22,392 bases of DNA from the NCBI GenBank assembly GCA_964577555.1, contig CAZNZM010000005.1:47693-70084 (forward strand). Reading direction: 5' to 3'. This document shows, in pieces, positions 2,520 to 22,193 of the stretch. Origin of the DNA: an uncultured archaeon. Lineage in GTDB: Archaea; Iainarchaeota; Iainarchaeia; Iainarchaeales; Iainarchaeaceae. The stretch's first letter is position 1, and each line of letters begins with the position of its first letter. A model generated the notes under the pieces. That model worked only from the letters and a program-made list of their open reading frames with translations, was not told where the DNA came from and ran no database searches. A program made the position numbers and the translations under genes.

Positions 2520-4046
2520 TTAATGCTTTGAAGCTTTGTTTATTTTTTCAATTAATAAGCTCTTGAGTTTTTCGGCGTTTTCTTTGCTGAGTCCGTCTAT
2601 GTGTGACTCTGTGCTAGATACAGGTGTGACCGTTGAAATGTGCAAATCATAAAGCCCTAAAATCTTGTCAAAAATGTCCTGGTCAATGAAAATATTTTCA
2701 ATACGATGGAATGGAATTGCAATTTCAGTTGTTCTTATAACGCCTTTTCTGATGTAAATAATGTCTTCGGATTGGTTGTAATAATAATTTTTGTAATAAA
2801 GTAATTCAAATAAATACCTGCCAATGACAACAAAGAAGAATGCCAATATTGTACCAACTATATTCAAAAAATTGAGTTTTGGAACGTATAGAACTTGAAG
2901 AGTTATTGCTATCAAAAGTAGGATAAAAAATATGATTGCTGTTTGTATTGTTCTTTTAATAGGTTTGCGTTGTTCGAGCGGAATTCTTTTTGATAAAGGT
3001 TCGATGTCTTGGTTTTGATTTAAGTCGTTGCTTGAAAATAGAAATTCCCTTAACCAAAATGCTTTATCAGGCTTTATATATGGTATTGCAGTATCCACAT
3101 TAAGTAATTGATCGTTCTTGTTTGAAGAAAAAATTTTTTCTATGCCGCCTGTTTCAGCTTTTACGTTTGACAAATTGAAGAATTTTTCAACAATGTTTCT
3201 GGTAATGACAATGTCCTGTATTTTTGAAATATTGAATGAAGCTTTTTTTATTGAAAACAAACCATATTGTATTTCAAGTCTGTTGTTTGAAATTGAAACT
3301 TTGAAATTTATTAGTTCTATATGTCTTGCAACCATAATTAGCAAAAATAAGACAATTATTATGGCAATTGAACCAAGTGTAATAAAAGAAAAATTACCAA
3401 TATTTTTGATTAATTCCCATTCTAAAAATCCTGAAAAACTAAGCAACAAATAAATTGCAAAAAACAGAATGAGAACAAAAATGATGCTAATAAATGCAAT
3501 TGCAGAGCTTATCATTCCTAAAGCAATATTTTTTAATTCCAAGGTTAATGCAGCTTCTTTCAAGATTTTTTCGGGTTTTTCCAATTTTTTTTCCTGCCTT
3601 TTGTTTTTCAAGTTTTCAATGGTTTTCATTTTTTCAAAAATAGTGTTTTTTATTTCATCAGATTCGGCAACATTGAATAAAGGCAATTCTGTTGCAAGAA
3701 CAGACGTATAAGTCATTGTTACTATTCTGAGCCGCTTTACTCCTAAAATAGCATCATACAATGTTTGAGCTTCTTTTATGTCCTGTATTTGCGAATAAAG
3801 GAAAGTTGATCTTTCTTCTGTAATCACTCCTTTTCTTATAGTCAATCCTTGTTCGTCCAACTTTATCCAAGTTTTAGTTATTTTCAAATAACCCCAACCG
3901 GTTAGTACTATAAATAAGAATGCCGCGATAAGAATGTTAAGCGGAAAAACCGGCATTAAAATCAAAAACGAAAAAAATGAAATATACAAGGATGAAAAGA
4001 AAACTAATAATAAATTGATGTTGCTTGGCTTGTAAATCTTTTCCAT
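2520..4046 (-). CDS. YdbT-like membrane protein with three bPH_2 (bacterial PH-like) domains
   Basis: 508 aa. A module of two TM helices followed by a PH-like segment occurs three times: TIRKGVITEERSTFLYSQIQDI...LGVKRLRIVT, EIQYGLFSIKKASFNISKIQDI...LSNVKAETGG, and IYIRKGVIRTTEIAIPFHRIENI...LGLYDLHISTVT. The ATG at 4044-4046 overlaps the upstream stop. Confidence 0.75.
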   Translation of the reverse strand: MEKIYKPSNINLLLVFFSSLYISFFSFLILMPVFPLNILIAAFLFIVLTGWGYLKITKTWIKLDEQGLTIRKGVITEERSTFLYSQIQDIKEAQTLYDAILGVKRLRIVTMTYTSVLATELPLFNVAESDEIKNTIFEKMKTIENLKNKRQEKKLEKPEKILKEAALTLELKNIALGMISSAIAFISIIFVLILFFAIYLLLSFSGFLEWELIKNIGNFSFITLGSIAIIIVLFLLIMVARHIELINFKVSISNNRLEIQYGLFSIKKASFNISKIQDIVITRNIVEKFFNLSNVKAETGGIEKIFSSNKNDQLLNVDTAIPYIKPDKAFWLREFLFSSNDLNQNQDIEPLSKRIPLEQRKPIKRTIQTAIIFFILLLIAITLQVLYVPKLNFLNIVGTILAFFFVVIGRYLFELLYYKNYYYNQSEDIIYIRKGVIRTTEIAIPFHRIENIFIDQDIFDKILGLYDLHISTVTPVSSTESHIDGLSKENAEKLKSLLIEKINKASKH

Positions 4047-4546
4047 TAAACCACTTTTTTTCGATTAATGGTTTTGAGAATAATGTCCCTCATTGTTTCT
4101 GCGTCTTGCTTTGATACTCCGTCAATGTGGGCATGATACCCTGACATTATGGTTGCAGTGGATACGTGCAAATCCCAAAGCCCGAAAACCCTGTCCAACA
4201 AATCCTGGTCCAAATATACGTCTTGTATTTTGTTCCAAGGCAAAGTGGTTTCAGTAGGCATGAAAACCCCTTTTCTTATTACAAGAAAATCAGTTTCAAA
4301 ATTATAAAAGTACTTTTCATAATATTTGCTTTCATACCAATAATTAATTAATGTGGCCGCAACAAAAAAAATCAATGCCAAGCTCAACAAAACGATTTTC
4401 AAACCATATTCAAGCTGAACCAAAAATATGGCTATTCCAATAATAAAAAACAAGATTCCAAGAACTACTTCCCTGGAAATAAATTTCTTCAAAATTTTCG
4501 CTTTTTGCAAAGGATACTTTTTTATCGTAGGAACATCTTGAGACAT
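4046..4546 (-). CDS. YdbS-like membrane protein with a single bPH_2 domain
   Basis: 166 aa with two TM helices, then LVIRKGVFMPTETTLPWNKIQDVYLDQDLLDRVFGLWDLHVSTAT, the same signature as the downstream gene. Stop and start overlap as TAATG at 4044-4048, which implies translational coupling. Confidence 0.75.
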   Translation of the reverse strand: MSQDVPTIKKYPLQKAKILKKFISREVVLGILFFIIGIAIFLVQLEYGLKIVLLSLALIFFVAATLINYWYESKYYEKYFYNFETDFLVIRKGVFMPTETTLPWNKIQDVYLDQDLLDRVFGLWDLHVSTATIMSGYHAHIDGVSKQDAETMRDIILKTINRKKVV

Positions 4547-4599
4547 TTTAATAAACCAATTTGCAAAATGTTTTAAAATAAATATATTATATATTAAAA

Positions 4600-4910
4600 G
4601 AAAGCAAAACCCAAAAAACGCGAGAAGAACAAAAAATTAATTTGCCTAAAAAAACCAACAAAACCGCTTACAGAAAACACGGCTTGCAGAAACAAGCCAA
4701 AAAGCAAAACAAAAAATTTCAATTTTTAAAACAAAAACCAGGCAAAAAACACCCGGCAAAAAGACAAAAAGAATTTTTAAAATTAAAAAAATAGTTTCAA
4801 GTTTGGCTTACAAAACAAACAACATGGTTATAAGTCTTGCAAAACCAAAGCTCTAAAAAAGGCTGCATTTTCAAACCAAAAACAAGTTTGCCAAAACAGG
4901 CAAAAAAAAT
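4600..4910 (-). repeat. Oligo(dT)-tract / GC-island spacer, inverted polarity (A-rich on + strand)
   Basis: The + strand shows A5-A8 runs separated by islands (CGCGAG, CCGCTTACAG, CACGGCTTGCAG, CAGGC, CACCCGGC, GGCTGC, GTTTGCC, CAGGC). This is the reverse-complement architecture of the other spacers. It lies in the divergent gap between the ydbS-like gene and the 349-aa gene. Confidence 0.6.
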
Positions 4911-4966: not shown

Positions 4967-6016
4967 TTGGTTGGTTCACTAAAAAGAGCTTGGTCCGGAT
5001 TGATTGGAGCAAGCAATCGTTCTTTATTGAGAAAAGCGCAAAAGGAATATTTAGCTGCAGAAAGAGTTGATAAAAGAGCACGGTTTTTTGGCAATGTCAT
5101 GGCTCGCAGAGCCGATGTCTTAGAAAGAGGAGTCATACACGCTCTTTATCGTTCCGATTTGGCTGGGGCACGCGCTGAAAAGTATAAAGGGAAAATGGAA
5201 AAGGCAATTGGTTGGCAATTATATTTATATGGTGTTTCTGCAAGCAGATCCAATCTTAATCCTATTAGAATGCTTGCTACTGCACTAGCTAAAATAATGG
5301 CGTGGAGAGCTAATGAAAACGCTGTTAAATATGGTCGTAATAGTGCTGCTTCTAGGATTCTTGAGAGAGCCGCATATAAATTAATCAGTGGAGGAGAAAA
5401 AACTTATCTTGCTAAAGCTCGTCTTCCTTCTGCTAGGGCTAAAAAAACATATATGTTAGGTGAAAGGTTCGAAGCTCTTTTAGCAAGGCAAGTTCCAACA
5501 ACTGCACGAAATGCTATTTCCATATTTGAAGAGTTAGTTAAAAATCACTCTCTGCTTAAAATGGCATATATTGATTATAGGCAAAAATTGGCTTCCGAAG
5601 CGGCTAGATTGCTTAAAGCTGCAAAAGATGCTAAGGCACTTGCTGAGAAAATGTCTAAACCAAGGAGTGAAATTATAAAAGCTGAAGAAAAAATAAAAAT
5701 TTATGAAAACGCCATTAATGAAATAAAAAGTTTGGCTCCTCCATCAGAATTCGTTTCTAGAATTAGAGCTCTTGGAGATAAAGTTGAGTCCCTTTATTCA
5801 GAATTTCTTGACGGTTCAACCTCTCTTGAGAAACAAAACAAAATTGCAAACGAGATAGAATTTTTGAGGGCCACAGCGTTGGAATTAAGTAGGCTTAATA
5901 AAGGATTAGTATATGGCGTAACTGTAAAGCACGGAAAAGTTTTGTTAGAGAAGCCACAAATAATTGAAAATATGAGCAAAGTAATAGAATTATTAAATTT
6001 AAGAAGAGCAACTTAA
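4967..6016 (+). CDS. Hypothetical protein, all-helical, Ala/Arg/Lys-rich, probable coiled coil
   Basis: A 349-aa open frame in an AT-rich background. TTG start at 4967, preceded by GAGGTGA (4954-4960) with a 6-nt spacer. The alternative ATG is at 5099. I recognise no family motif. The C-terminal half is heptad-like (EKIKIYENAINEIKSL, LEKQNKIANEIEFLRATALELSRLN). Confidence 0.6.
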   Translation: MVGSLKRAWSGLIGASNRSLLRKAQKEYLAAERVDKRARFFGNVMARRADVLERGVIHALYRSDLAGARAEKYKGKMEKAIGWQLYLYGVSASRSNLNPIRMLATALAKIMAWRANENAVKYGRNSAASRILERAAYKLISGGEKTYLAKARLPSARAKKTYMLGERFEALLARQVPTTARNAISIFEELVKNHSLLKMAYIDYRQKLASEAARLLKAAKDAKALAEKMSKPRSEIIKAEEKIKIYENAINEIKSLAPPSEFVSRIRALGDKVESLYSEFLDGSTSLEKQNKIANEIEFLRATALELSRLNKGLVYGVTVKHGKVLLEKPQIIENMSKVIELLNLRRAT

Positions 6017-6115: not shown

Positions 6116-9100
6116 TCAATTCCAAGCGTAGCTGGCCCATTTTTTATAAATATCGTTGAATTCTTCATTATTGTTGATTGTAATATAATTGCTGGTTTGA
6201 TTGTCATTGTCTTGATTATACTTGTCTAAATAACAACCTGGATCTTTATTGCATTCGTTCATATAAGAAATCAATTTTTTCTTTGCGCATATTGCATTAT
6301 TGTAAATGTTTTCTTCTTCTTTGTTTTGTTTTTTAAGGTTGCATCCAAACATGTACTTGTTGCTTTTGTCAATTCCCAAACCGGATTTTACTACCCCTAA
6401 AGATACCACCATTGCTTCAAGATCAAGATCAGTATTACTTTTGAAGTTTGTTTTTTCGTCTTTAACCGCTTCCGATATAATAACTCCTATTCTTTCTCCG
6501 GATTCCTGCTTTTTCAAATAATTAAGCACCATTGAAGCGTGTTTTATTTCAATTCCTTTTCTTATCATTATGCTTGGCGGGTTATGTGCGTCAGGCAAAA
6601 GTCCCGGAAGAACTGTTGCGATTTCGTTGTTAATATTTTGATTGTTGCATTCATTCAAAACCTGTTCAATACTTGTTCCTTCAGGTATTATTGCAGGCCC
6701 TGATATTATAATCTTTTTTTCCTCAGGAGTTTGTGTTATAATAATTTTGTAGGTTCTGTAATTAATTATTTCTTGTGTCCCCATGTCTTCCCCTTCAATT
6801 GTGAGCAGGGAAACATCTATTCCTGATCTGTTAAGTTCTTCTCCTCTTGATAACGGAGTATTTTTTAATGATTCTTCCAAGGAAAGTTCATAGAATTTCA
6901 TTCCTACAAAATTGGCCAACGCTCCAAAGGCTCCTTCTTTAAGCAGTGTTCTTGCGCCTGTAAAAAACGCTTTCCACCCTGGCTTTGCTTTTTTTACTAT
7001 TTTTTCGGCGTTTAATGTTTTAGTGTATTGTTCTTTAATCCATTTTTCATATTTTTCCTTTGCAGATACTCCCACAGTGTCTTTTAAAATTTCTGGGTTG
7101 TATAGAACATATCTTTCTATTTGGTTATTAATTATTGTGAACTTGTTTTTTATGTCATACACAACAATTTTGTCATTAGGTATGTTTTGAAGTTCATTTT
7201 TTAGTAACTCTTCTAATTCCTTTGGCAATTTTTGAATTTTAAGTTCTCTTTTCAATTTTGCTTCGATTCTATCTATAAGTTTATTCAGGATTTCATTTTT
7301 TTGACTTGTATTTTTTTGTTCGAAACCTGCCAATTCTGGAAATTCATCAGTATTTAATTTTATTTTTTCCATTAATTTTGATTCTTCCAAGGCTTCCTCA
7401 AAGAATTTTCTTTCCAATGCTTCTTCATCATTTTCACCTTCCAAAAATTCGTAACTGAAATATTTTCTGTTTTCATAATAAAAGCCTAAAACTTTTTTAT
7501 CAGAACCCACTTTTCTAATTACATTTTGAACTGCTTTGATTTTTTCTTCTTCAGGTATTTCCACGTGCCTTCCAAATGTGGAAGCGTCTATTCTTGCATT
7601 TTCTCTTGCTATTTCGTCGAATTCTCCCAAAAGTTCTATTTCAATATCTTTTTGTAATGACTTTTCAAATGCTATTAATATTTGCCTGTTTCCAATGCCT
7701 TTGTCGAATGTATTTTTTGCAACTTCCCTGCTTATTTCTTCAGCAATTGATTTTGCAAGCACGGTTCTGTCAACTATTCCTGCTCTTGTGTTTATTTTGC
7801 TGCTGGATTGAATTATTGATTTTAGTGTTTGTGCTGGCACAAATGCTTCTATTATGTTGCTTGTGGCTTGTTCTTCCGCTTTTTGAATTTGTTGCAGTTG
7901 TTGGTTAGGATTTGTTGTTTCTCCAACCCCAATTGCACCAAATAACAGGTTTAAGAGTTTGCTTGCTCCATTATAAACTAATTTTAATGCATCAACTATT
8001 GGTTTTGTAATTTTTTCCACAAATCCTGTAAAGTCTTTGAATATGTCTTTGTCTCCCCATTGATTGTATGCATAAGGTATTCCGCAATCGAATACTATGT
8101 TGAATAATGCTCCTATCCGACCTATTGTCGGTCTTAAGAATGATGTTATTGCGCTTGTTATGGAGCATATGCCCAAATAGACAAGGTTTGCTTTTGTTTT
8201 TGCCGCTTTTACTTCCGGCGGGTCGTCATTAAGTATTTTTATTTCGTTTTTTTCTATTTGATTTGCGGTTTTTAGGTTTGATTCTATTTTGTTTAGTTTT
8301 GCAATGTCGCTTATCAGTATTTTGTCGTTGTCTTTGCCTTTCCAAATGAATGTTGCATAATATGGTGTTTTGCTTGGTTGTTTTTCTCTTATTTTTTCCA
8401 TGAAATCCAACGGATGTATTCCGCATATTTGCAAGTTTATTTGTTCCCATTTTGGGTTTTTTGCTTCGTTTTCAATTCTTTTTGCAGAACCCAATATTGC
8501 TTTACCTTGAGCTTGGTGTATTTGCGAATTTCCTTTTACACAAATTTTTGCTTCTCCAATAAATTTGTTTGTTTTTTGGTCAAGTTTATCAATTTTTAAT
8601 TGTGTTATGGTTTCGTTGCTTGAATTTGCTTGTATGAAGAATGGTTCGTCAACTCCGTCAAATTGTGTTGCTTTTTTTGCTGTTAATATGGCATTTTCTT
8701 TTATGTCGCTTAATACGTTAAAGTCGGTGCATGAAGGTGTGCCATATTGTACTTTGATTTCTTTTCCAGCCTTGACTTCAATTAAGCCTATGTCTTTTGT
8801 AGCTTTTATTTTCAAGTAGCTTTCATCAACGCCTATACATCCGTTAATTACGTTTTCTCTCAGGTTTTTTATTGCTTGTGCCGCTTCTTTTACTATTTCT
8901 TTTTGCAGTTTTTCGTCTCCGCCAATGCTTTCTTTTATGAATGCTTCAACAGTAACAGGGTTGTTTGGCGATGCTGGAGGCATTCTTATTTTTACTATGT
9001 AATCGCTTTCATTTGAGAGGTCAAGTTTGAGGTTGTTGGTGCTTGCTTCGCTTTGTGTTGCTCTTTGGTCAGACCCAAATAGGCTTTTTGCTATTTCTTT

Positions 9101-16843: not shown

Positions 16844-16917
16844 GGCGACCACTGGGATTCGAACCCAGCCCCAAAGCTCCACAGGCTTCGATGCGAAACC
16901 ACTACACCATGGTCGCC
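16844..16917 (-). tRNA. tRNA-His (anticodon GUG) with genome-encoded G-1, no encoded CCA
   Basis: The minus-strand sequence is GGCGACCATGGTGTAGTGGTTTCGCATCGAAGCCTGTGGAGCTTTGGGGCTGGGTTCGAATCCCAGTGGTCGCC. It folds by hand into a cloverleaf. The acceptor stem is GCGACCA/UGGUCGC, with an extra 5' G opposite discriminator C73. The D stem is GUGU/GCAU. The anticodon stem is GAAGC/GCUUU with loop CUGUGGA. The T arm is CUGGG-UUCGAAU-CCCAG. Confidence 0.85.
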
Positions 16918-17100
16918 ATGAAATTAAGTTTGTTTGTTTCAATAGCAAAACAAAATAACCAAAATTAGAATTGCAATTTTTATATGTGAAGACACTCACT
17001 ATCCATGACAAAATATTTCAGCGTTTTGTTTAAAAATCAATCTGGAATTGTTGCCGTGTCATGCCTTGTTTTGTTCGCTTTTGAAAAAACCCCCTTTGCT

Positions 17101-17116
17101 AAAATATAATAATATC
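17101..17116 (+). promoter_or_regulatory. TATA-box candidate for the pilus-like operon
   Basis: AAAATATAATAATATC lies about 50-60 nt upstream of the ATG at 17165, in the divergent gap shared with tRNA-His. Confidence 0.35.
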
Positions 17117-17164
17117 ATTTATCTAATTATTCTCGCAGTAACCAGGTTTTTGAGTTGTTATTTT

Positions 17165-19438
17165 ATGGATCCAAGCACTTTCGGAGTCAGCCCTTATGTA
17201 ATCAAAGATGAAGGAGGAAAAAGGGCTCTCGTAATTGATGCTAGAGGCGCTTTTTATACTCCTTCAATTGCAGACGACCGAAATGCGCGTTTTACAGTCA
17301 TCAAGATTCTCACAGAAGTTGAAGCCGATTTTATTATATTGGCTGATATTTATGAGCGGGTTTATAATGAATACCAAACCAAAATGCTTGCGGAAATTGC
17401 CGCTCTTTATAATAAATTTGAAATGGATGGTATTTGGAGTTATTCGCATTTGGGCGACCCTGTTAAGGAATCTGAAAAGGATTTTGGCGAAAGGCACAAC
17501 GTCATTGTGAAAGTCAGCCATGAAGAGCTTCTTTTTGACCCCATAAGCGCTTATTTGTTGCTCTTGGAAGAAATGAAAAAAGAAGCAAGCCGATTAGATT
17601 CTTTGCCAAGCGAAAAAAAAGCCATGGTTTATGCAAAAACCCTGCTTGAAATAAAAAACGCTTTTGAAGGAACGGAATTGATAAAGCGAGCAAGAAGCAT
17701 TATATCAAAACTTGAAAAGGTTCCAGACACTTCGCAAATTTACAGGGTTTTTTTTGAGGTTGATGTCAAGCCAAGTTTCATAGGTTCAAGGCTTGTTTTC
17801 GGCGACGAGGAAAGGCTTGAACTTCTTGACGAGTACAACGTCAAAGAAGCCAACGTACAAATCTTCAAACACCCGAGCAAAACAGAAAAACTTTATTTTA
17901 TCAGTTTGCCAGAATATTCCCTTACTCCTGAAAAATATTTTCTCGTAAGCAAGACAAAGGAAACAGTTGCTACTTACAAGCCCGGCAGAATATCATTGTC
18001 CAACATTGCAAAAAGCAGGCGTTATTTTGAAAGAATTTACCAATCAACAATGAAAGAAATAGCCAAATTGGAAAAAATCAATATTGCCAACGATGAGATT
18101 GTCGAGCTAAGCCAAATAGTTGCGCGTTATACTGTTGGTTATGGAGTTCTTGAAGTAATTCTTTCAGACAGAAAAGTCACTGATGTATATATTGATGCCC
18201 CAATAGGTTCAAAATTGATTTATTTGGTTCATTCAGAGTACGGACAATGCCAAACCAACGTAATTTACACTCAAGACGAAGCATCTTCTTTTATTTCAAA
18301 ATTAAGGGCAATGTCCGGCAGGCCTTTTGACGAAGCCCACCCAGTCCTTGATTACGATTTGCCGGAACTTGATACGAGAGTTGCTGCGATAAGCCCGCCT
18401 CTTTCGCCAGATGGAAACGCTTTTGCTTTCAGGTTGCACAAAACAACTCCTTGGACTCTTGCACAATTCTTGGACGTAAAATACTTGCCTCCTCTTGCAG
18501 CAGGATTGCTTTCTTTTTTCGTGGATTCTCAATCAACAATGCTGGTTACTGGGAGCAGGGGTTCAGGAAAAACCTCTCTTATGAGCGCTCTAATGCTTGA
18601 AATTTTGCAAAACACAAGAATAATTTGCCAAGAAGACACGCTTGAATTGCCAGTGGAGTACATGAAAAAAATAGGTTTCAATGTTCAAAGACTGAAAACC
18701 AGGTCGCCAATAGGTTCAAGCGAAAGCGACAGCGAAGTGCCTCCTGAAGAATCGCTCAGAACAGCATTAAGACTTGGCGACAGCGCCCTAATCATAGGAG
18801 AAGTGAGAAGCAAAGAAGCCAAGGTTTTGTATGAAGCAATGCGCGTTGGAGCAGCAGGAAACATTGTCATGGGAACAATACACGGAGACAGCGCTTATTC
18901 GGTTTGGGACAGAATAGTTAATGACCTTGAAGTTCCAACAACTTCTTTTAAAGCAACCGACATTGTTGTTGTGGCAAGGCCAATAAGGTTTAAAGGCAGC
19001 ATTTCAAGGCAAAGGAGAGTTGTCCAAATAACCGAAGTCAAAAAGCATTGGAAGGATGATCCCAGCGAAGAAGGAGGCTTGCTTGATTTAATGTCTTATG
19101 ATGCCGGCAGAGACTCTTTAGATTTGATAGAAGATAACTTAAAAGAAAGCGACCTTTTTTCAAGAGTGAGCAAAACATCAGGATTGTCGCTTGACCAAAT
19201 ATGGAAATGGATAAATGTAAACGCAGAATCAAAAGCATATCTTGTCCAAATGAAAAACGAATTCAAAGTACCTCAAATACTTGAAGCAGAATATACTGTC
19301 ATGGCTCAAAACAAATTAGCTTTGATAAAAGAAGCACAATTAGAAGAATTCGGTTCTGTCGATTATGATGAAGCTCTTGGTCAATGGAAAAATTGGGTGC
19401 GCTCAAATCTTGTAAAAAAAGTCAAGGAGAGAACATAA
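17165..19438 (+). CDS. Type IV pilus/archaellum-family secretion ATPase (FlaI/PilB/VirB11-like) with a long N-terminal extension
   Basis: 757 aa from the ATG at 17165. The ORF-track TTG at 17048 adds a Cys/Leu-rich junk-like leader that overlaps the TATA region. Walker A is VTGSRGSGKTS (Lys at about residue 469). The Walker B/Asp box is ALIIGEVRSKEA and the His box is MGTIHGDSA. The stop overlaps the next start as TAATG at 19436-19440. Confidence 0.85.
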   Translation: MDPSTFGVSPYVIKDEGGKRALVIDARGAFYTPSIADDRNARFTVIKILTEVEADFIILADIYERVYNEYQTKMLAEIAALYNKFEMDGIWSYSHLGDPVKESEKDFGERHNVIVKVSHEELLFDPISAYLLLLEEMKKEASRLDSLPSEKKAMVYAKTLLEIKNAFEGTELIKRARSIISKLEKVPDTSQIYRVFFEVDVKPSFIGSRLVFGDEERLELLDEYNVKEANVQIFKHPSKTEKLYFISLPEYSLTPEKYFLVSKTKETVATYKPGRISLSNIAKSRRYFERIYQSTMKEIAKLEKINIANDEIVELSQIVARYTVGYGVLEVILSDRKVTDVYIDAPIGSKLIYLVHSEYGQCQTNVIYTQDEASSFISKLRAMSGRPFDEAHPVLDYDLPELDTRVAAISPPLSPDGNAFAFRLHKTTPWTLAQFLDVKYLPPLAAGLLSFFVDSQSTMLVTGSRGSGKTSLMSALMLEILQNTRIICQEDTLELPVEYMKKIGFNVQRLKTRSPIGSSESDSEVPPEESLRTALRLGDSALIIGEVRSKEAKVLYEAMRVGAAGNIVMGTIHGDSAYSVWDRIVNDLEVPTTSFKATDIVVVARPIRFKGSISRQRRVVQITEVKKHWKDDPSEEGGLLDLMSYDAGRDSLDLIEDNLKESDLFSRVSKTSGLSLDQIWKWINVNAESKAYLVQMKNEFKVPQILEAEYTVMAQNKLALIKEAQLEEFGSVDYDEALGQWKNWVRSNLVKKVKERT

Positions 19439-21765
19439 TGCAAAAAAAGAATGACCCTACAATAGGTGAACTTTACGGAAAAATAGTTACAACCAGCGAG
19501 GATTTTGATTTAGGCGACCACAAGCTTGTCAAAGAACCAGACCATCCTTTTGTAAGGCTCTGCAAAAACATTTACAAGGTTGCCCCTTCTTTAGGCAAAG
19601 GAGGAAAATTCAGCGATGAAAACAAAAAAGCTGTTGAATTTTTGCAATGGAATCTAAGCCCTGAAGAATTTGCAGGAGCATCAACAATAGTGGCTTATGT
19701 TTCATTTGCAACAGCTTTTTTGCTTGGCTCTCTTTTTATTTTCACTGACTTGAGAAAACTTATTGAACTTATTGGAGGCAACGAAATCAGCGGACTTTTT
19801 TATGCATTCGCCCCATTTCTTTTGGTTGCTACAACTATTGTTTATTTGTTTCAAACATACCCTTCCTCAGAAGCAAAACGCGAACAAACAAGGGCTCTCA
19901 CATATGTGCCTGAAATGATGGGTTACATGGTAATGTCCATAAAACTTGTTCCAAACCTTGAAAAAGCTGTGGAATTTGCTAGTTCCCATGGCAAAGGAAA
20001 AATTGCAAAAGATTTCAAAGACATAATATGGAAAACACAATTAGGATTTTACAATTCTCTTGCAGAAGGACTTGACACGCTTGCATATCGCTGGGGACAC
20101 TATTCAACAGAATTCAAAAGAGCCCTCATGAGGATAAGAGTATCAGTAATAGAAAATTCCGAAGCTAAAAGATATGCATTACTTGACGACACCATGTCCG
20201 AAATGCTTGACAGCATCAAAAACAAAATGGAACAATATGCCAGAGATTTGTCCCAGCCAAGCACAATGCTGTTTTATATTGGCGTCTTACTTCCTTTATT
20301 GCTTATAATAATACTCCCAGTCGGAAGCACTTTTACCGGCGCGCCACTTGCAAATCCTATTGTCCTATTTTTGATTTACAACATCATAATTCCACTAATC
20401 ACTATAATATTTGCTTACAATTTGATAACCACAAGACCACCTACTTATGAACCCCCAATAATACCAGACAATTATGAAGGAATCCCCAAACCTTGGCACG
20501 GAAAATTTTCAGGTTTAACAGTCGATGTGCGCCTAGTTGCATTGCTTATATTTGTTTTTGGATTGTCAATTTCCTTCCTGATTTCCACACAAGGTTTTCC
20601 CCCTAATTTCGTGCTTGGCACGGAAGGAAGGCAAGCTTGTTACGAAGGCAAGCAAATAATCTGCCCTGACCTTTCAAAAAAAGTTGCTTTGGAACGCGTA
20701 GGCAGGCCTGAAACATATTTCAACCTTGACGAAACAGGAGTGCTTTTTCCAGAAAAATTCAACGAAAAAAAACGCTACATGGATTTGACCGATACAGAGT
20801 CTCTTGAACAAGCAGAAGAACAAGCAAAAAAGGAAGTGCTTGCAGAAGAACAACTTTTCTTTTCATCAAAAGAAAACGACATTGCCCCATACATTCTTGT
20901 CTTCGGCATTCTTATAACTTTTTCAATATGCGTCTTCATACTGCTTTACTATTCAAGCATTTACAAACGCAAAGCCCAATTAGAAATACAAGAAATGGAA
21001 TCAGAGTTCAAGGATTCACTTTATATTCTTGCATCCCGAATGGGAGAAAACAAGCCAGTTGAAGACGCTATGAAACACGTCCAAGATTTTTTACCAGAAG
21101 CCAAAATATCAAAACGGGTTTTCGGAAAAACACTTGACAACATAAAATTCACGGGAATGCCCCTTGAACAAGCAGCATTTGACCAAAACCTTGGCTCAGT
21201 TTCAAAATTACCATCTTCAATAATCAAAGGAGCAATGAAAATGCTTGTGGATTCCGTACAATTAGGCTCTAACGTAGCTGCACGCACCATGATTTCACTC
21301 TCAATACAATTGCAAAACGCCGAAAAAGTTAACAACAACCTAAAAGTTTTGGTATCAGATATTACAAGCACAATGCGAACCATGGCAATGTTCATTGCAC
21401 CAATGGTGCTAGGCATAACAACCAGCCTGCAAAGAATAGTCATTGTAACGATTTCATCAATAGCTTCCTCAGGCATAGCCGAATCAAGCGTACAAGGCGC
21501 GGATTATTTGGGCGTAAGCTTTGCCAGTGCAGCAGGTTTCATCAAACCAGAAGCAATAGCAGGAATAGCTTCGCCAACACAATTCATATTCATTGTATCC
21601 CTTTACATAATTGAACTTGTCTTGATAATGGGCTACTTTACCACCAAAATAGAAGAGGACAACGATTTACTCCTAAAAATCAATATATCAATTTTTATGC
21701 CGATTGCAATAATAGTGTTTGTAATTTCAATGATTGTTTCAAACATGTTTGTGGGTTCAATATGA
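19438..21765 (+). CDS. FlaJ/PilC/TadC-like polytopic platform membrane protein (two T2SS-F-like repeats, enlarged)
   Basis: 775 aa from the ATG at 19438, with AAGGAGAG 7 nt upstream. There are two cytoplasmic helical segments of T2SSF type (LTYVPEMMGYMVMSIKLVPNLEKAVEFAS...EGLDTLAYRW and FKDSLYILASRMGENKPVEDAMKHV...PLEQAAF), each followed by TM clusters. It is positioned immediately after the ATPase, as in archaeal flaI-flaJ or pilB-pilC pairs. Confidence 0.7.
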   Translation: MQKKNDPTIGELYGKIVTTSEDFDLGDHKLVKEPDHPFVRLCKNIYKVAPSLGKGGKFSDENKKAVEFLQWNLSPEEFAGASTIVAYVSFATAFLLGSLFIFTDLRKLIELIGGNEISGLFYAFAPFLLVATTIVYLFQTYPSSEAKREQTRALTYVPEMMGYMVMSIKLVPNLEKAVEFASSHGKGKIAKDFKDIIWKTQLGFYNSLAEGLDTLAYRWGHYSTEFKRALMRIRVSVIENSEAKRYALLDDTMSEMLDSIKNKMEQYARDLSQPSTMLFYIGVLLPLLLIIILPVGSTFTGAPLANPIVLFLIYNIIIPLITIIFAYNLITTRPPTYEPPIIPDNYEGIPKPWHGKFSGLTVDVRLVALLIFVFGLSISFLISTQGFPPNFVLGTEGRQACYEGKQIICPDLSKKVALERVGRPETYFNLDETGVLFPEKFNEKKRYMDLTDTESLEQAEEQAKKEVLAEEQLFFSSKENDIAPYILVFGILITFSICVFILLYYSSIYKRKAQLEIQEMESEFKDSLYILASRMGENKPVEDAMKHVQDFLPEAKISKRVFGKTLDNIKFTGMPLEQAAFDQNLGSVSKLPSSIIKGAMKMLVDSVQLGSNVAARTMISLSIQLQNAEKVNNNLKVLVSDITSTMRTMAMFIAPMVLGITTSLQRIVIVTISSIASSGIAESSVQGADYLGVSFASAAGFIKPEAIAGIASPTQFIFIVSLYIIELVLIMGYFTTKIEEDNDLLLKINISIFMPIAIIVFVISMIVSNMFVGSI

Positions 21766-22193
21766 AAACCTCAAACCAATCAGGCCAAGCTTTCGAACCT
21801 TTCAACCTTCTTATAGGCGCAATCTTTGCTCTTACAGTGCTTGTAATAATAATAAGCGCAGTAAATTATTTTGACAACGAAAGAATAAAAATAAGCCAAC
21901 AACGATTTTATGACGGCTTGGCCAATGCAGTAAAATCACCAAATAAAGAAACACTTGTAATAAGAGAGATCCAATTGCCAACAGACGCCTCTTTCTCTGC
22001 CAAATCACTTGGAAATTCAATCGGCTTGGACGAAAAATGCGTTTCAATAGAAGCATCACCAAGCTTTGAAATCACCGGCTCAACAATCAAGGCAAAAAAC
22101 AACATAAGAACAGACATATACATCAGATGTTTTACTGGCGGAACCTGCGAAATAGACTGTGAAATTTCATTCGGCAAAGACTTTGAAAATTGA
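21762..22193 (+). CDS. Candidate type IV pilin-like protein (class III signal peptide)
   Basis: 143 aa. The start overlaps the upstream stop as ATGA (21762-21765). The N-terminus is MKTSNQSG/QAFEPFNLLIGAIFALTVLVIIISAV. This is a short polar head, a G-Q junction, an acidic residue near +4/+5, and then a hydrophobic helix of about 21 aa, resembling archaeal prepilin signals. The C-terminal domain is predicted beta-rich and has 4 Cys. Confidence 0.5.
   Translation: MKTSNQSGQAFEPFNLLIGAIFALTVLVIIISAVNYFDNERIKISQQRFYDGLANAVKSPNKETLVIREIQLPTDASFSAKSLGNSIGLDEKCVSIEASPSFEITGSTIKAKNNIRTDIYIRCFTGGTCEIDCEISFGKDFEN

Follow-up and report, generated by a model that had tools for sequence, protein, structure and literature searches.

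The SPEARE proteins of Nanohaloarchaeota are multi-thousand-residue, membrane-anchored and mostly extracytoplasmic proteins of DPANN archaea that carry adhesion-type domains, and the genomes encoding them also contain FlaI/FlaJ/pilin-like genes (PMC6642349). Here, we describe a giant protein of 2,773 amino acids (aa) that is like them in these respects. It is encoded at 6116..14437 on the minus strand of a 22,392-nucleotide (nt) stretch of DNA, here called the window, from an uncultured archaeon of the phylum Iainarchaeota (Diapherotrites), which belongs to the DPANN group. All positions refer to this window. SPEARE proteins possess serine-protease, laminin-G/adhesion and type III restriction-enzyme domains and a transmembrane helix near the C-terminus (PMC6642349). 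In contrast, the giant protein of the window has no serine-protease, laminin-G or restriction-endonuclease domain detectable with Pfam and is anchored N-terminally by a distinct module. A link to an archaeosortase, as found at our locus, is undescribed for SPEARE, and our homologue searches revealed no sequence similarity between the two.

Three further systems invite comparison. In archaeosortase systems (ArtA/PGF-CTERM, PEF-CTERM and Loki-CTERM; PMC6098224), a Cys/Arg/His enzyme is likewise encoded beside large surface proteins in which a proline-containing motif abuts a transmembrane helix. The enzyme of our locus is only about half the usual size, though, and the motif and transmembrane helix of the giant protein are N-terminal and lack a basic tail, with an apparently inverted geometry. 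Archaeal type IV pilus loci (Makarova et al. 2016, PMC4858521; for DPANN loci, PMC6393860) also combine an ATPase, a TadC/FlaJ-like platform protein and pilins with large N-terminally anchored surface proteins. The giants described here differ in their size of 2,400-3,070 aa, in forming a family of their own, in their unique N-terminal module, and in the archaeosortase-family gene alongside. Such a gene is mentioned in neither PMC4858521 nor PMC6393860, and the words "archaeosortase" and "exosortase" do not occur in the text of the former. Finally, the giant proteins of Omnitrophota (bioRxiv 10.1101/2023.11.21.568195) are likewise largely unannotated and membrane-associated, carry adhesion/carbohydrate domains and are encoded beside machinery of the type II secretion system (T2SS)/type IV pilus type in ultra-small cells. 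Unlike the giant protein of the window, they are bacterial, 10-30 times larger and equipped with many transmembrane helices and SecA-like domains, and no homology was detected. Hence, our protein shares the general logic of SPEARE, of archaeal pilus accessory proteins, of ArtA-dependent sorting and of the Omnitrophota giants, but is a member of none of these groups.

The giant gene and its family

The giant open reading frame (ORF) was called at 6116..14455 (minus strand) with a TTG start. An ATG at position 14437 agrees with the N-termini of the homologues, which follow the pattern MG(F/L/I)(G/S)(E/D) (e.g., MGLGD or MGISE), and gives a protein of 2,773 aa starting with MGFGES, with the stop codon at 6116-6118. 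According to an earlier annotation made from the sequence alone (the original prediction), one uninterrupted frame of 8.3 kb covers about 37% of the window and cannot have arisen by chance. Both statements hold. The gene occupies 8,322 of the 22,392 nt (37%). At the composition of the window, stops make up ∼7.6% of random codons, and the probability of 2,773 consecutive stop-free codons is ∼1e-95. Among 300 shuffles of the window, no stop-free run exceeded 202 codons, and the two alternative frames on the same strand contain 216 and 185 stops. The giant frame is a real gene and not a chance frame. A mis-assembly or chimera, against which a check had been advised, is unlikely because the homologues are collinear in at least nine independent assemblies.

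A TATA-like sequence (TTTATATAAATA; 14472-14483, minus strand) can be read directly ∼35-45 nt 5′ of the ATG, and a GGTG (14443-14446, minus strand) is located 6-9 nt before it. Judged by their position, TTTATATAAATA and GGTG would fit an archaeal promoter and a ribosome-binding site. The TATA element that had been claimed for this gene is therefore present as a sequence, and its promoter role is a prediction.

We next determined the distribution of the giant. A search of 5.8 billion proteins returned the identical protein in data of the Joint Genome Institute (JGI) and eight full-length homologues of 2,418-3,065 aa (P0002-P0009) with 28-52% identity to the giant. The alignment is collinear, and several homologues align over the entire query (100%). 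When one genome per GTDB species was scanned, 22 species-level loci with a giant gene were identified, including Candidatus Iainarchaeum andersonii SCGC AAA011-E11. These loci are labelled Candidatus Iainarchaeum, Diapherotrites or "archaeon", and one Micrarchaeota. Word-indexed homologue searches added only one further protein when the full-length alignment was used, and only 21 short fragments with the N-terminal module. Full-text literature searches yielded no description of the giant family, nor of a cluster of archaeosortase, pilus and giant genes in DPANN archaea. On the basis of these sequence comparisons, we regard the giants as an undescribed, lineage-restricted family with ∼78% of its length devoid of recognisable domains. 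In genomes of ∼1.2 Mb, their genes rank among the largest. With 45-55% identity over 2,000 aa and 60% in the predicted cytoplasmic tail, the giants are also well conserved, and hence likely to be central to the biology of the cell surface.

Domain architecture of the giant protein

The protein starts with an acidic tail (aa 1-43; 14309..14437, minus strand) that contains nine Asp/Glu versus three Lys/Arg residues. It is conserved better than any other part of the protein (60% identity; all segment identities are means to the eight homologues), and it forms the first part of a module common to the paralogous giants described below (giant1, which includes the protein of the window, and giant2). 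The duplicated D(K/R)GIP element noted in the original prediction is indeed present as DKGIP (aa 27-31) and DRGIP (aa 41-45), and a third GIP copy, DCGIP, is found far downstream at aa 2117-2121. The tail is followed by the motif IPAFP (aa 44-48), which is kept as [IL]P.[FL]P, and a transmembrane helix (aa 49-67; motif and helix at 14237..14308, minus strand). With a Kyte-Doolittle hydropathy of 2.75, this helix is the only strong transmembrane helix of the giant, again in agreement with what had been predicted. In an alignment of 23 such modules (A4), Y11, E15, D23, Y33, E40, P45 and P48 are invariant.

The 23 modules contain 3-5 Lys/Arg residues in the tail versus 0-2 in the 12 residues after the helix. 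This distribution favours an orientation with the N-terminal tail inside and the body outside, in line with the extracellular region that had been proposed from the paired cysteines. This orientation is also in keeping with the Ig-like modules, the conserved pairs of Cys residues and the lysozyme-like C-terminus (see below). The inverted topology (tail outside, body cytoplasmic) would match the geometry of a sortase. We considered it, but rejected it on the same four grounds.

Approximately six CarboxypepD_reg/Ig-like beta-sandwich modules follow (aa 70-600; 12638..14230, minus strand), some of which are recognised by Pfam PF13620 and by profile-profile comparison with hhalign. CarboxypepD_reg matched with 77.9 bits (cut-off 32.3; E 7.7e-22) in three significant stretches, the best at aa 344-407, and was found in nine of nine giants. 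Six units of ∼85 aa are readable by eye. In tiled hhalign comparisons, only aa 69-180 paired with aa 248-361, and together with a blastp self-comparison this was the single related pair of Ig modules among all internal repeats, indicating that the units have diverged far from each other. The original count of 6-7 tandem modules is therefore plausible in full and demonstrated for about half. One additional module had been placed near ILLEDDAQQ. It could not be recovered: there was no Pfam match, and the sole signal was a tail-fibre domain from the PDB with E=0.46.

The adjacent region (aa 601-1535; 9833..12637, minus strand) appears beta-rich by eye and retains 52-55% identity to the homologues. 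Its invariant residues include H650, R652, D662, S663 and YGRSY (680-684). No match to Pfam, NCBIfam or PDB sequences was obtained apart from the tail-fibre domain, which lies near aa 940-1015. Indeed, no Pfam or NCBIfam family was found anywhere in aa 600-2773. The existence of an unassignable core was thus borne out, but its size, given as more than 1,300 aa, had been understated. S-layer families did not match the giant at E≤1 (Pfam) or E≤0.1 (NCBIfam), and the HMM (hidden Markov model) searches placed it in no S-layer or adhesin family over its whole length. Overall, the picture of an N-terminally membrane-anchored protein with Ig-like modules and without a described family for most of its length was supported.

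Of the 26 cysteines of the giant, at least 19 do not vary among nine homologues, with close pairs at C790/C795, C1573/C1578 and C1614/C1624. While the proposed Cys pairs are therefore conserved, the proposed richness in Asn, Thr and Ser is not borne out, because these residues account for an unremarkable 15-24% per 200-aa block. Eleven invariant cysteines are located in an alpha/beta region at aa 1536-2040 (8318..9832, minus strand). Its AlphaFold2 model (m32a06d14aaf6; predicted local distance difference test, pLDDT, 75.9) shows mixed alpha/beta domains and one Ig-like sandwich. A Foldseek search of this model against the PDB gave generic Ig-like matches only (E∼1e-3), and an hmmsearch of PDB sequences with the profile of the region gave nothing. 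Likewise, nothing significant was found among PDB sequences with profiles A1, A2, A3 and A6.

Next to it, AlphaFold2 predicts a hairpin of two helices with many small residues (aa 2074-2127; 8057..8218, minus strand) that ends in the third GIP copy. Its helices correspond to model residues 539-566 and 571-592. Their hydropathy of 1.5-1.7 is moderate and borderline for a transmembrane segment. The hairpin pattern YLG.C..TS..TS..RP..G....N...DC..P is kept in at least 20 sequences, and no sorting-domain HMM matched the region. We considered an internal tripartite sorting signal at this site (PE...AKTKA, helix, RP) and rejected it, given the basic residues between motif and helix, the weak hydrophobicity of the helix, and the missing sorting-domain match. 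The hairpin is followed by a variable Lys/Glu-rich helical spacer (aa 2131-2439; 7121..8047, minus strand) with 20% identity and a length of 250-550 aa among the homologues, and by a weakly conserved linker (aa 2440-2609; 6611..7120, minus strand) with a pLDDT below 55, in which KEGAFGALANFVG (aa 2500-2512) is conserved.

The C-terminus is formed by an all-alpha domain with 4-5 conserved cysteines (aa 2610-2773; 6119..6610, minus strand; pLDDT 80-96). A profile of the C-terminal 334 aa was run with HMMER exhaustively against 1.84 billion representative proteins. Only 31 proteins were found, all of them C-termini of giants of 2,650-2,980 aa or fragments thereof. The domain is therefore private to the giant family. 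Its core, as seen in 19-20 divergent members, reads ..(V/I)PEAL.V..GI.KSG.G..(7-10)..(M/I)(F/T)GC...CA...C...C..Y...Y..W. Enzymes of glycoside hydrolase family 73 (GH73) carry the motif ..ESGWG...NLFG. The domain of the giants resembles GH73 and GH23 enzymes in being all-alpha and in the stretch ..PEAL.V..GI.(E/K)SG.G...(M/L)FG., which parallels this motif. It differs from them by a lysine (Lys2684, in VVKSGLG) at the position of the catalytic Glu, by the 4-5 extra conserved cysteines and by scores below threshold. The top PDB match in Foldseek was the GH23 chitinase 3w6e (E 0.49, probability 0.66, TM-score 0.5 over the whole target). One family member, P0059 (ITESGFG...YLFGC), matched the Pfam model Glucosaminidase (PF01832, GH73) over its catalytic region with E 0.0024 and 19 bits, below the cut-off of 30.2, and P0055 matched SLT_2 weakly over the same stretch (E 0.08). 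The domain of the window itself had no Pfam match, and an hhalign comparison of the family with goose lysozyme was not significant (probability 0.24%). The matches to 3w6e, Glucosaminidase and SLT_2 are three independent, weak pointers to the lysozyme-like superfamily (GH73/GH23), and we think this assignment rather probable.

The catalytic position is occupied by Lys, Gln, Tyr or another residue in 18 of 19 members, and Glu is found only in P0059. Because of this replacement, canonical glycosidase activity is unlikely, and a glycan-binding or structural role would be the simpler assumption for the domain. A lysozyme-like domain without its catalytic Glu suggests recognition of a glycan such as a cell wall and could point to a partner organism or substrate. 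P0059, a fragment of 718 aa with the relevant stretch at residues ∼600-690, combines the sole retained Glu with the sole Glucosaminidase match and may represent an active relative of an otherwise inactivated domain.

The giant gene is linked to archaeosortase-like and pilus genes

Directly upstream of the giant gene and on the same strand, a gene at 14556..15116 (minus strand; mechanical ORF start TTG at 15164) encodes an archaeosortase-like protein of ∼185 aa. It passes the exosortase/archaeosortase signature of NCBIfam (TIGR04178, 36.4 bits, cut-off 23) and stays below the cut-off of the ArtD model (TIGR04175, 22.8 bits versus 125). With 160-200 aa, the orthologues reach about half the size of canonical archaeosortases, and we therefore refer to this protein as mini-archaeosortase. 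Cys, Arg and His are kept, as LCTG..E, FN..RI and a His do not vary among 10-13 orthologues. The alignment shows a basic N-terminal tail, a KKR loop after the Cys-bearing helix and a basic C-terminal tail. From this pattern we reason that Cys, Arg and His would lie near the outer face of the membrane, as in canonical exosortases. In many related loci, the gene is adjoined by one for a protein of ∼290-330 aa with several transmembrane helices and without a Pfam match (L001 8500-9375, L004 80-1072 and orthologues). These neighbours are of two types, one overlapping the mini-archaeosortase gene on the same strand and one divergent to it, and might contribute the membrane helices that the half-size sortase lacks. 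No gene of this kind is present in the window.

The pilus-type genes of the window lie upstream, beyond the genes for histidyl-tRNA synthetase (HisRS) and tRNA-His, and are divergent to the giant gene. They encode a FlaI/TadA-like ATPase of the type IV pilus/archaellum type (796 aa; 17048..19438, plus strand) with a T2SSE domain at aa 416-646, a PilC/FlaJ/TadC-like platform membrane protein (793 aa; 19384..21765, plus strand) with a faint Pfam T2SSF match, and a pilin-like protein (143 aa; 21762..22193, plus strand). The latter has a pilin-type N-terminus (SGQAFEPFNLLIGAIFAL) that we recognised by eye as being of class III type (…SGQAFEPFNLLIGAIFALTVLV…), and orthologues occupy the same position in related loci. 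Orthologues of the platform protein (51-71% identical) adjoin the ATPase there. The ATPase carries ∼400 unannotated residues before its T2SSE domain. It and the platform protein are much larger than typical FlaI and FlaJ and are 51-84% conserved across the related loci.

In 25 loci compared at the ORF level, a recurrent gene order emerged, with [pilin][pilin][platform][ATPase] divergent to [multi-transmembrane protein][mini-archaeosortase][giant1][pilin-like][giant2] and sometimes a third giant. Altogether, the synteny is seen in dozens of loci, the majority of which have the pilin-like gene and one or two additional giants with the N-terminal module. At one locus (L055), the ATPase, the platform protein, two pilins, the mini-archaeosortase and the giant are all encoded on one strand. 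Giant2 comprises ∼2,550 aa and has only the first ∼930 aa in common with giant1, at 23% identity. Its N-terminus shows the same module, Y..E.KYY.F.D.L...GIPVY...D..E..NIPSFP, followed by the transmembrane helix. In most related loci, giant1 and giant2 are separated by a gene for a pilin-like protein of 344-627 aa (..KGFTLFTALIAF..). The N-terminus of these proteins (..KGFTLFTALIAFILI..; L001 19964-21130, L002 17511-18545, L004 9954-11837) is strikingly like the leader of type IV pilins of the bacterial type. This gene is absent from the window.

The mini-archaeosortase gene precedes the giant gene in 13 giant-anchored loci. Eight giant-anchored loci, including the window, show synteny between the ATPase and giant genes. 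We also performed the reverse test and searched JGI metagenomes with the mini-archaeosortase alignment. This search gave 34 loci, 14 of which contain the ATPase. A giant with the N-terminal module was encoded downstream on the same strand in 19 of the 34 loci. Among the 12 loci whose sequence extends for at least 4 kb downstream, 10 showed this arrangement, and the other two (L032 and L041) encode different large N-terminally anchored proteins there. In these loci, the mini-archaeosortase is followed by proteins of more than 1,200 aa (L032 7122-10850, L041 8392-12489) that lack the GIP/IP.FP module, which means that the tie between the enzyme family and this module is not a strict one.

Possible function of the giant protein

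Our best explanation, to which we assign a roughly even chance, is that the giant is a type-II-anchored adhesin or envelope fibre of a surface module linked to a pilus and an archaeosortase. The most likely mechanism would involve a fibre of ∼300 kDa. The gene would be transcribed from its own TATA-like element and the product inserted into the membrane in type II orientation, as the charge distribution suggests, with the conserved acidic tail of 43 aa in the cytoplasm, one transmembrane helix and ∼2,700 aa outside. The ∼six CarboxypepD_reg modules, which Pfam detects in part, and ∼900 aa of conserved family-less sequence could then form a stalk. The distal part may consist of a Cys-rich, presumably disulfide-bonded alpha/beta head, followed by the hairpin, the variable spacer and the lysozyme-like end, as seen in the AlphaFold2 models. 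Having lost the catalytic Glu, this end would bind glycans rather than cut them. The shared N-terminal module may serve as a label for handling by a partner from the cluster, either the pilus ATPase/platform or the mini-archaeosortase, as their synteny suggests. The module is common to the giants and more conserved than any other segment, and would be the prime candidate for an element mediating such a coupling. The net function would be adhesion to, or scaffolding at, a surface: the wall of another cell, a substrate, or the own envelope of the cell. The reality of the gene, its family distribution, its domain content and the synteny are shown by the data, and topology, extracellular location, adhesion or glycan binding and functional coupling are inferred.

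Several observations weigh against this explanation. N-X-S/T sequons are not enriched (22 versus 23.9 ± 4.4 in shuffles), and we therefore dropped their enrichment as a sign of surface exposure. The topology is based on simple charge counting. No mini-archaeosortase gene was found in the 2.4-10 kb upstream of the giant gene at four loci (L005, L011, L019 and L023), and the locus of the window is reduced: the genes for the pilin-like protein and giant2 are missing, and HisRS is encoded between the mini-archaeosortase and the ATPase. All indicators of a lysozyme-like end, whether from Foldseek, Pfam or hhalign, lie below significance. Finally, none of the cluster proteins has a canonical C-terminal archaeosortase signal (motif, transmembrane helix and basic cluster), and by our topology reasoning IP.FP faces the cytoplasm, whereas the catalytic residues of the enzyme face outward.

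We considered four other explanations, which take the giant as an N-terminal sortase substrate, as a pilin-like subunit, as an S-layer-like envelope protein and as an attack device. According to the first, the giants are substrates of the mini-archaeosortase via a new N-terminal signal. Cleavage would occur at or near IP.FP, followed by release or lipid-anchoring, much as in PGF/PEF-CTERM processing except that the other terminus would be involved. This is possible, but we consider it unlikely. In its favour, the gene for the enzyme, with its invariant Cys, Arg and His, is located directly upstream of module-bearing giants in most loci irrespective of the starting point of the search. In addition, IP.FP plus the transmembrane helix is the only conserved element in the cluster that combines a proline motif with such a helix. 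A C-terminal signal is not available: the giant ends in ...KKWASYAWN without a hydrophobic segment, has no NCBIfam match and lacks the tripartite C-terminal signal of PGF-, PEF-, VPXXXP- and Loki-CTERM substrates. An ArtA substrate with a non-C-terminal signal, cited in PMC6098224, would be a precedent for an internal one. The Loki-CTERM model weakly matched 8 of the 23 modules, those of giant2 type, at IP.FP (best E 0.057), and the match was abolished by changing IPSFP to ASSAS. But the best per-protein score stays below the cut-off (13.4 versus 19.9 bits), and the giant1-type module of the window gave no Loki-CTERM match. Furthermore, there is no basic cluster after the transmembrane helix, and the mini-archaeosortases of L032 and L041 are paired with large proteins lacking the module. 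Thus, IP.FP resembles a sorting signal, yet appears to lie at the cytoplasmic face, on the wrong side of the membrane for an enzyme with its active site at the outer face.

In an extended version, the N-terminal module would be a new sorting signal read by a dedicated minimal archaeosortase. Once processed, the giants would be passed to the type-IV-pilus-like ATPase and platform for deployment. This version is doubtful. If true, it would be the first case of an exosortase-family system that targets its substrates at the N-terminal end, would connect archaeosortase processing with pilus-type machinery for the first time, and would define a DPANN-specific surface organelle. Any action of the mini-archaeosortase on the N-terminal module would extend the known sorting rules of exosortases and archaeosortases.

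Second, the giant itself could be a pilin-like subunit that is cleaved like a prepilin after (K/R/H)G at aa 42-43, so that its body is mounted as a tip or minor "mega-pilin" adhesin. Class III signal peptides have a short and mostly basic leader that ends in [KR]-[GA] and directly precedes a hydrophobic helix of ∼20 aa. All giant1 members have (K/R/H)-G, which is RG in the window, before I/L-P and the hydrophobic helix, a site that resembles this arrangement. However, the leader of the giant is 43 aa long, acidic (net charge ∼-6) and highly conserved, unlike the short basic class III leaders, and the giant2 paralogues have Asn instead of Gly or Ala at position -1. The synteny of the giant with genes for the ATPase, the platform and bona fide pilin-like proteins would suit a pilin function, and the proteins of 344-627 aa between giant1 and giant2 demonstrate that large pilin-type proteins exist here. 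But no prepilin peptidase gene was seen in the fetched loci, and a filament could hardly accommodate a subunit of 300 kDa that has a second hydrophobic hairpin. We therefore regard this explanation as improbable.

Third, the giant may be the main envelope or S-layer-like stalk protein, processed by the mini-archaeosortase in the manner of ArtA, with the pilus genes as mere neighbours. ArtA processes the S-layer glycoprotein of Haloferax, so a coupling between archaeosortase and S-layer is established (PMC6098224). The presence of the giant in many Iainarchaeota species, its own TATA-like element and the long Ig-like stalk would agree with such a role. Still, we give it little credence. Neither an S-layer family match (Pfam, NCBIfam) nor a C-terminal anchor signal was detected, the variable spacer and lysozyme-like end are atypical of lattice proteins, and two or three paralogous giants together with pilin genes in one cluster suit an appendage better than a lattice.

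Fourth, an attack or feeding device that inserts the hairpin into a target membrane and digests the target wall with the lysozyme-like domain is very improbable: both elements are present, and giant genes beside T2SS-like genes have been reported in predatory Omnitrophota (bioRxiv 10.1101/2023.11.21.568195), but the catalytic Glu is replaced in nearly all family members including the protein of the window, the hydrophobicity of the hairpin is borderline, and the lineage is regarded as possibly free-living (PMC12892359).

How DPANN archaea, which are ultra-small and mostly uncultured, make contact with cells or surfaces is an open question in the field. The original prediction had viewed the giant as a candidate for host contact in episymbiotic archaea. 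Since Iainarchaeota/Diapherotrites are treated as a putatively free-living DPANN lineage (PMC12892359, PMC6642349), this framing should be softened. The locus provides a concrete, conserved parts list for one phylum, consisting of a pilus-type motor, pilins, a half-size archaeosortase and two or three proteins of ∼300 kDa with one N-terminal label. This genomic company makes the giant more interesting than an isolated "giant adhesin".

Other features of the window

The remaining genes of the window fit a small archaeal genome. The gene for tRNA-His (GTG; 16843-16917, minus strand) is located directly upstream of that for HisRS (15564-16874, minus strand) and overlaps its mechanically called TTG start. 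Because of this overlap, the real start of HisRS is probably the internal MIGFQTVRGMRDF. In place of the genes for the pilin-like protein and giant2, the window contains an ORF at 4967-6016 (plus strand), convergent with the giant gene. It encodes a basic, apparently helical orphan of 349 aa without a Pfam or NCBIfam match and without a homologue in the 25 related loci. The RNA ligase RtcB and its activator archease are encoded close together, followed by two bPH_2 membrane proteins, one of 508 aa with three copies of the domain and one of 166 aa with a single copy (170-1624, 2068-2487 and 2520-4546, all on the minus strand). The intergenic regions 1-108, 1858-2056, 4594-4794 and 15147-15556 contain degenerate T-rich tandem repeats with periods of ∼13-94 nt, which read on the opposite strand as short Lys-rich ORFs (KKKNAKK...).

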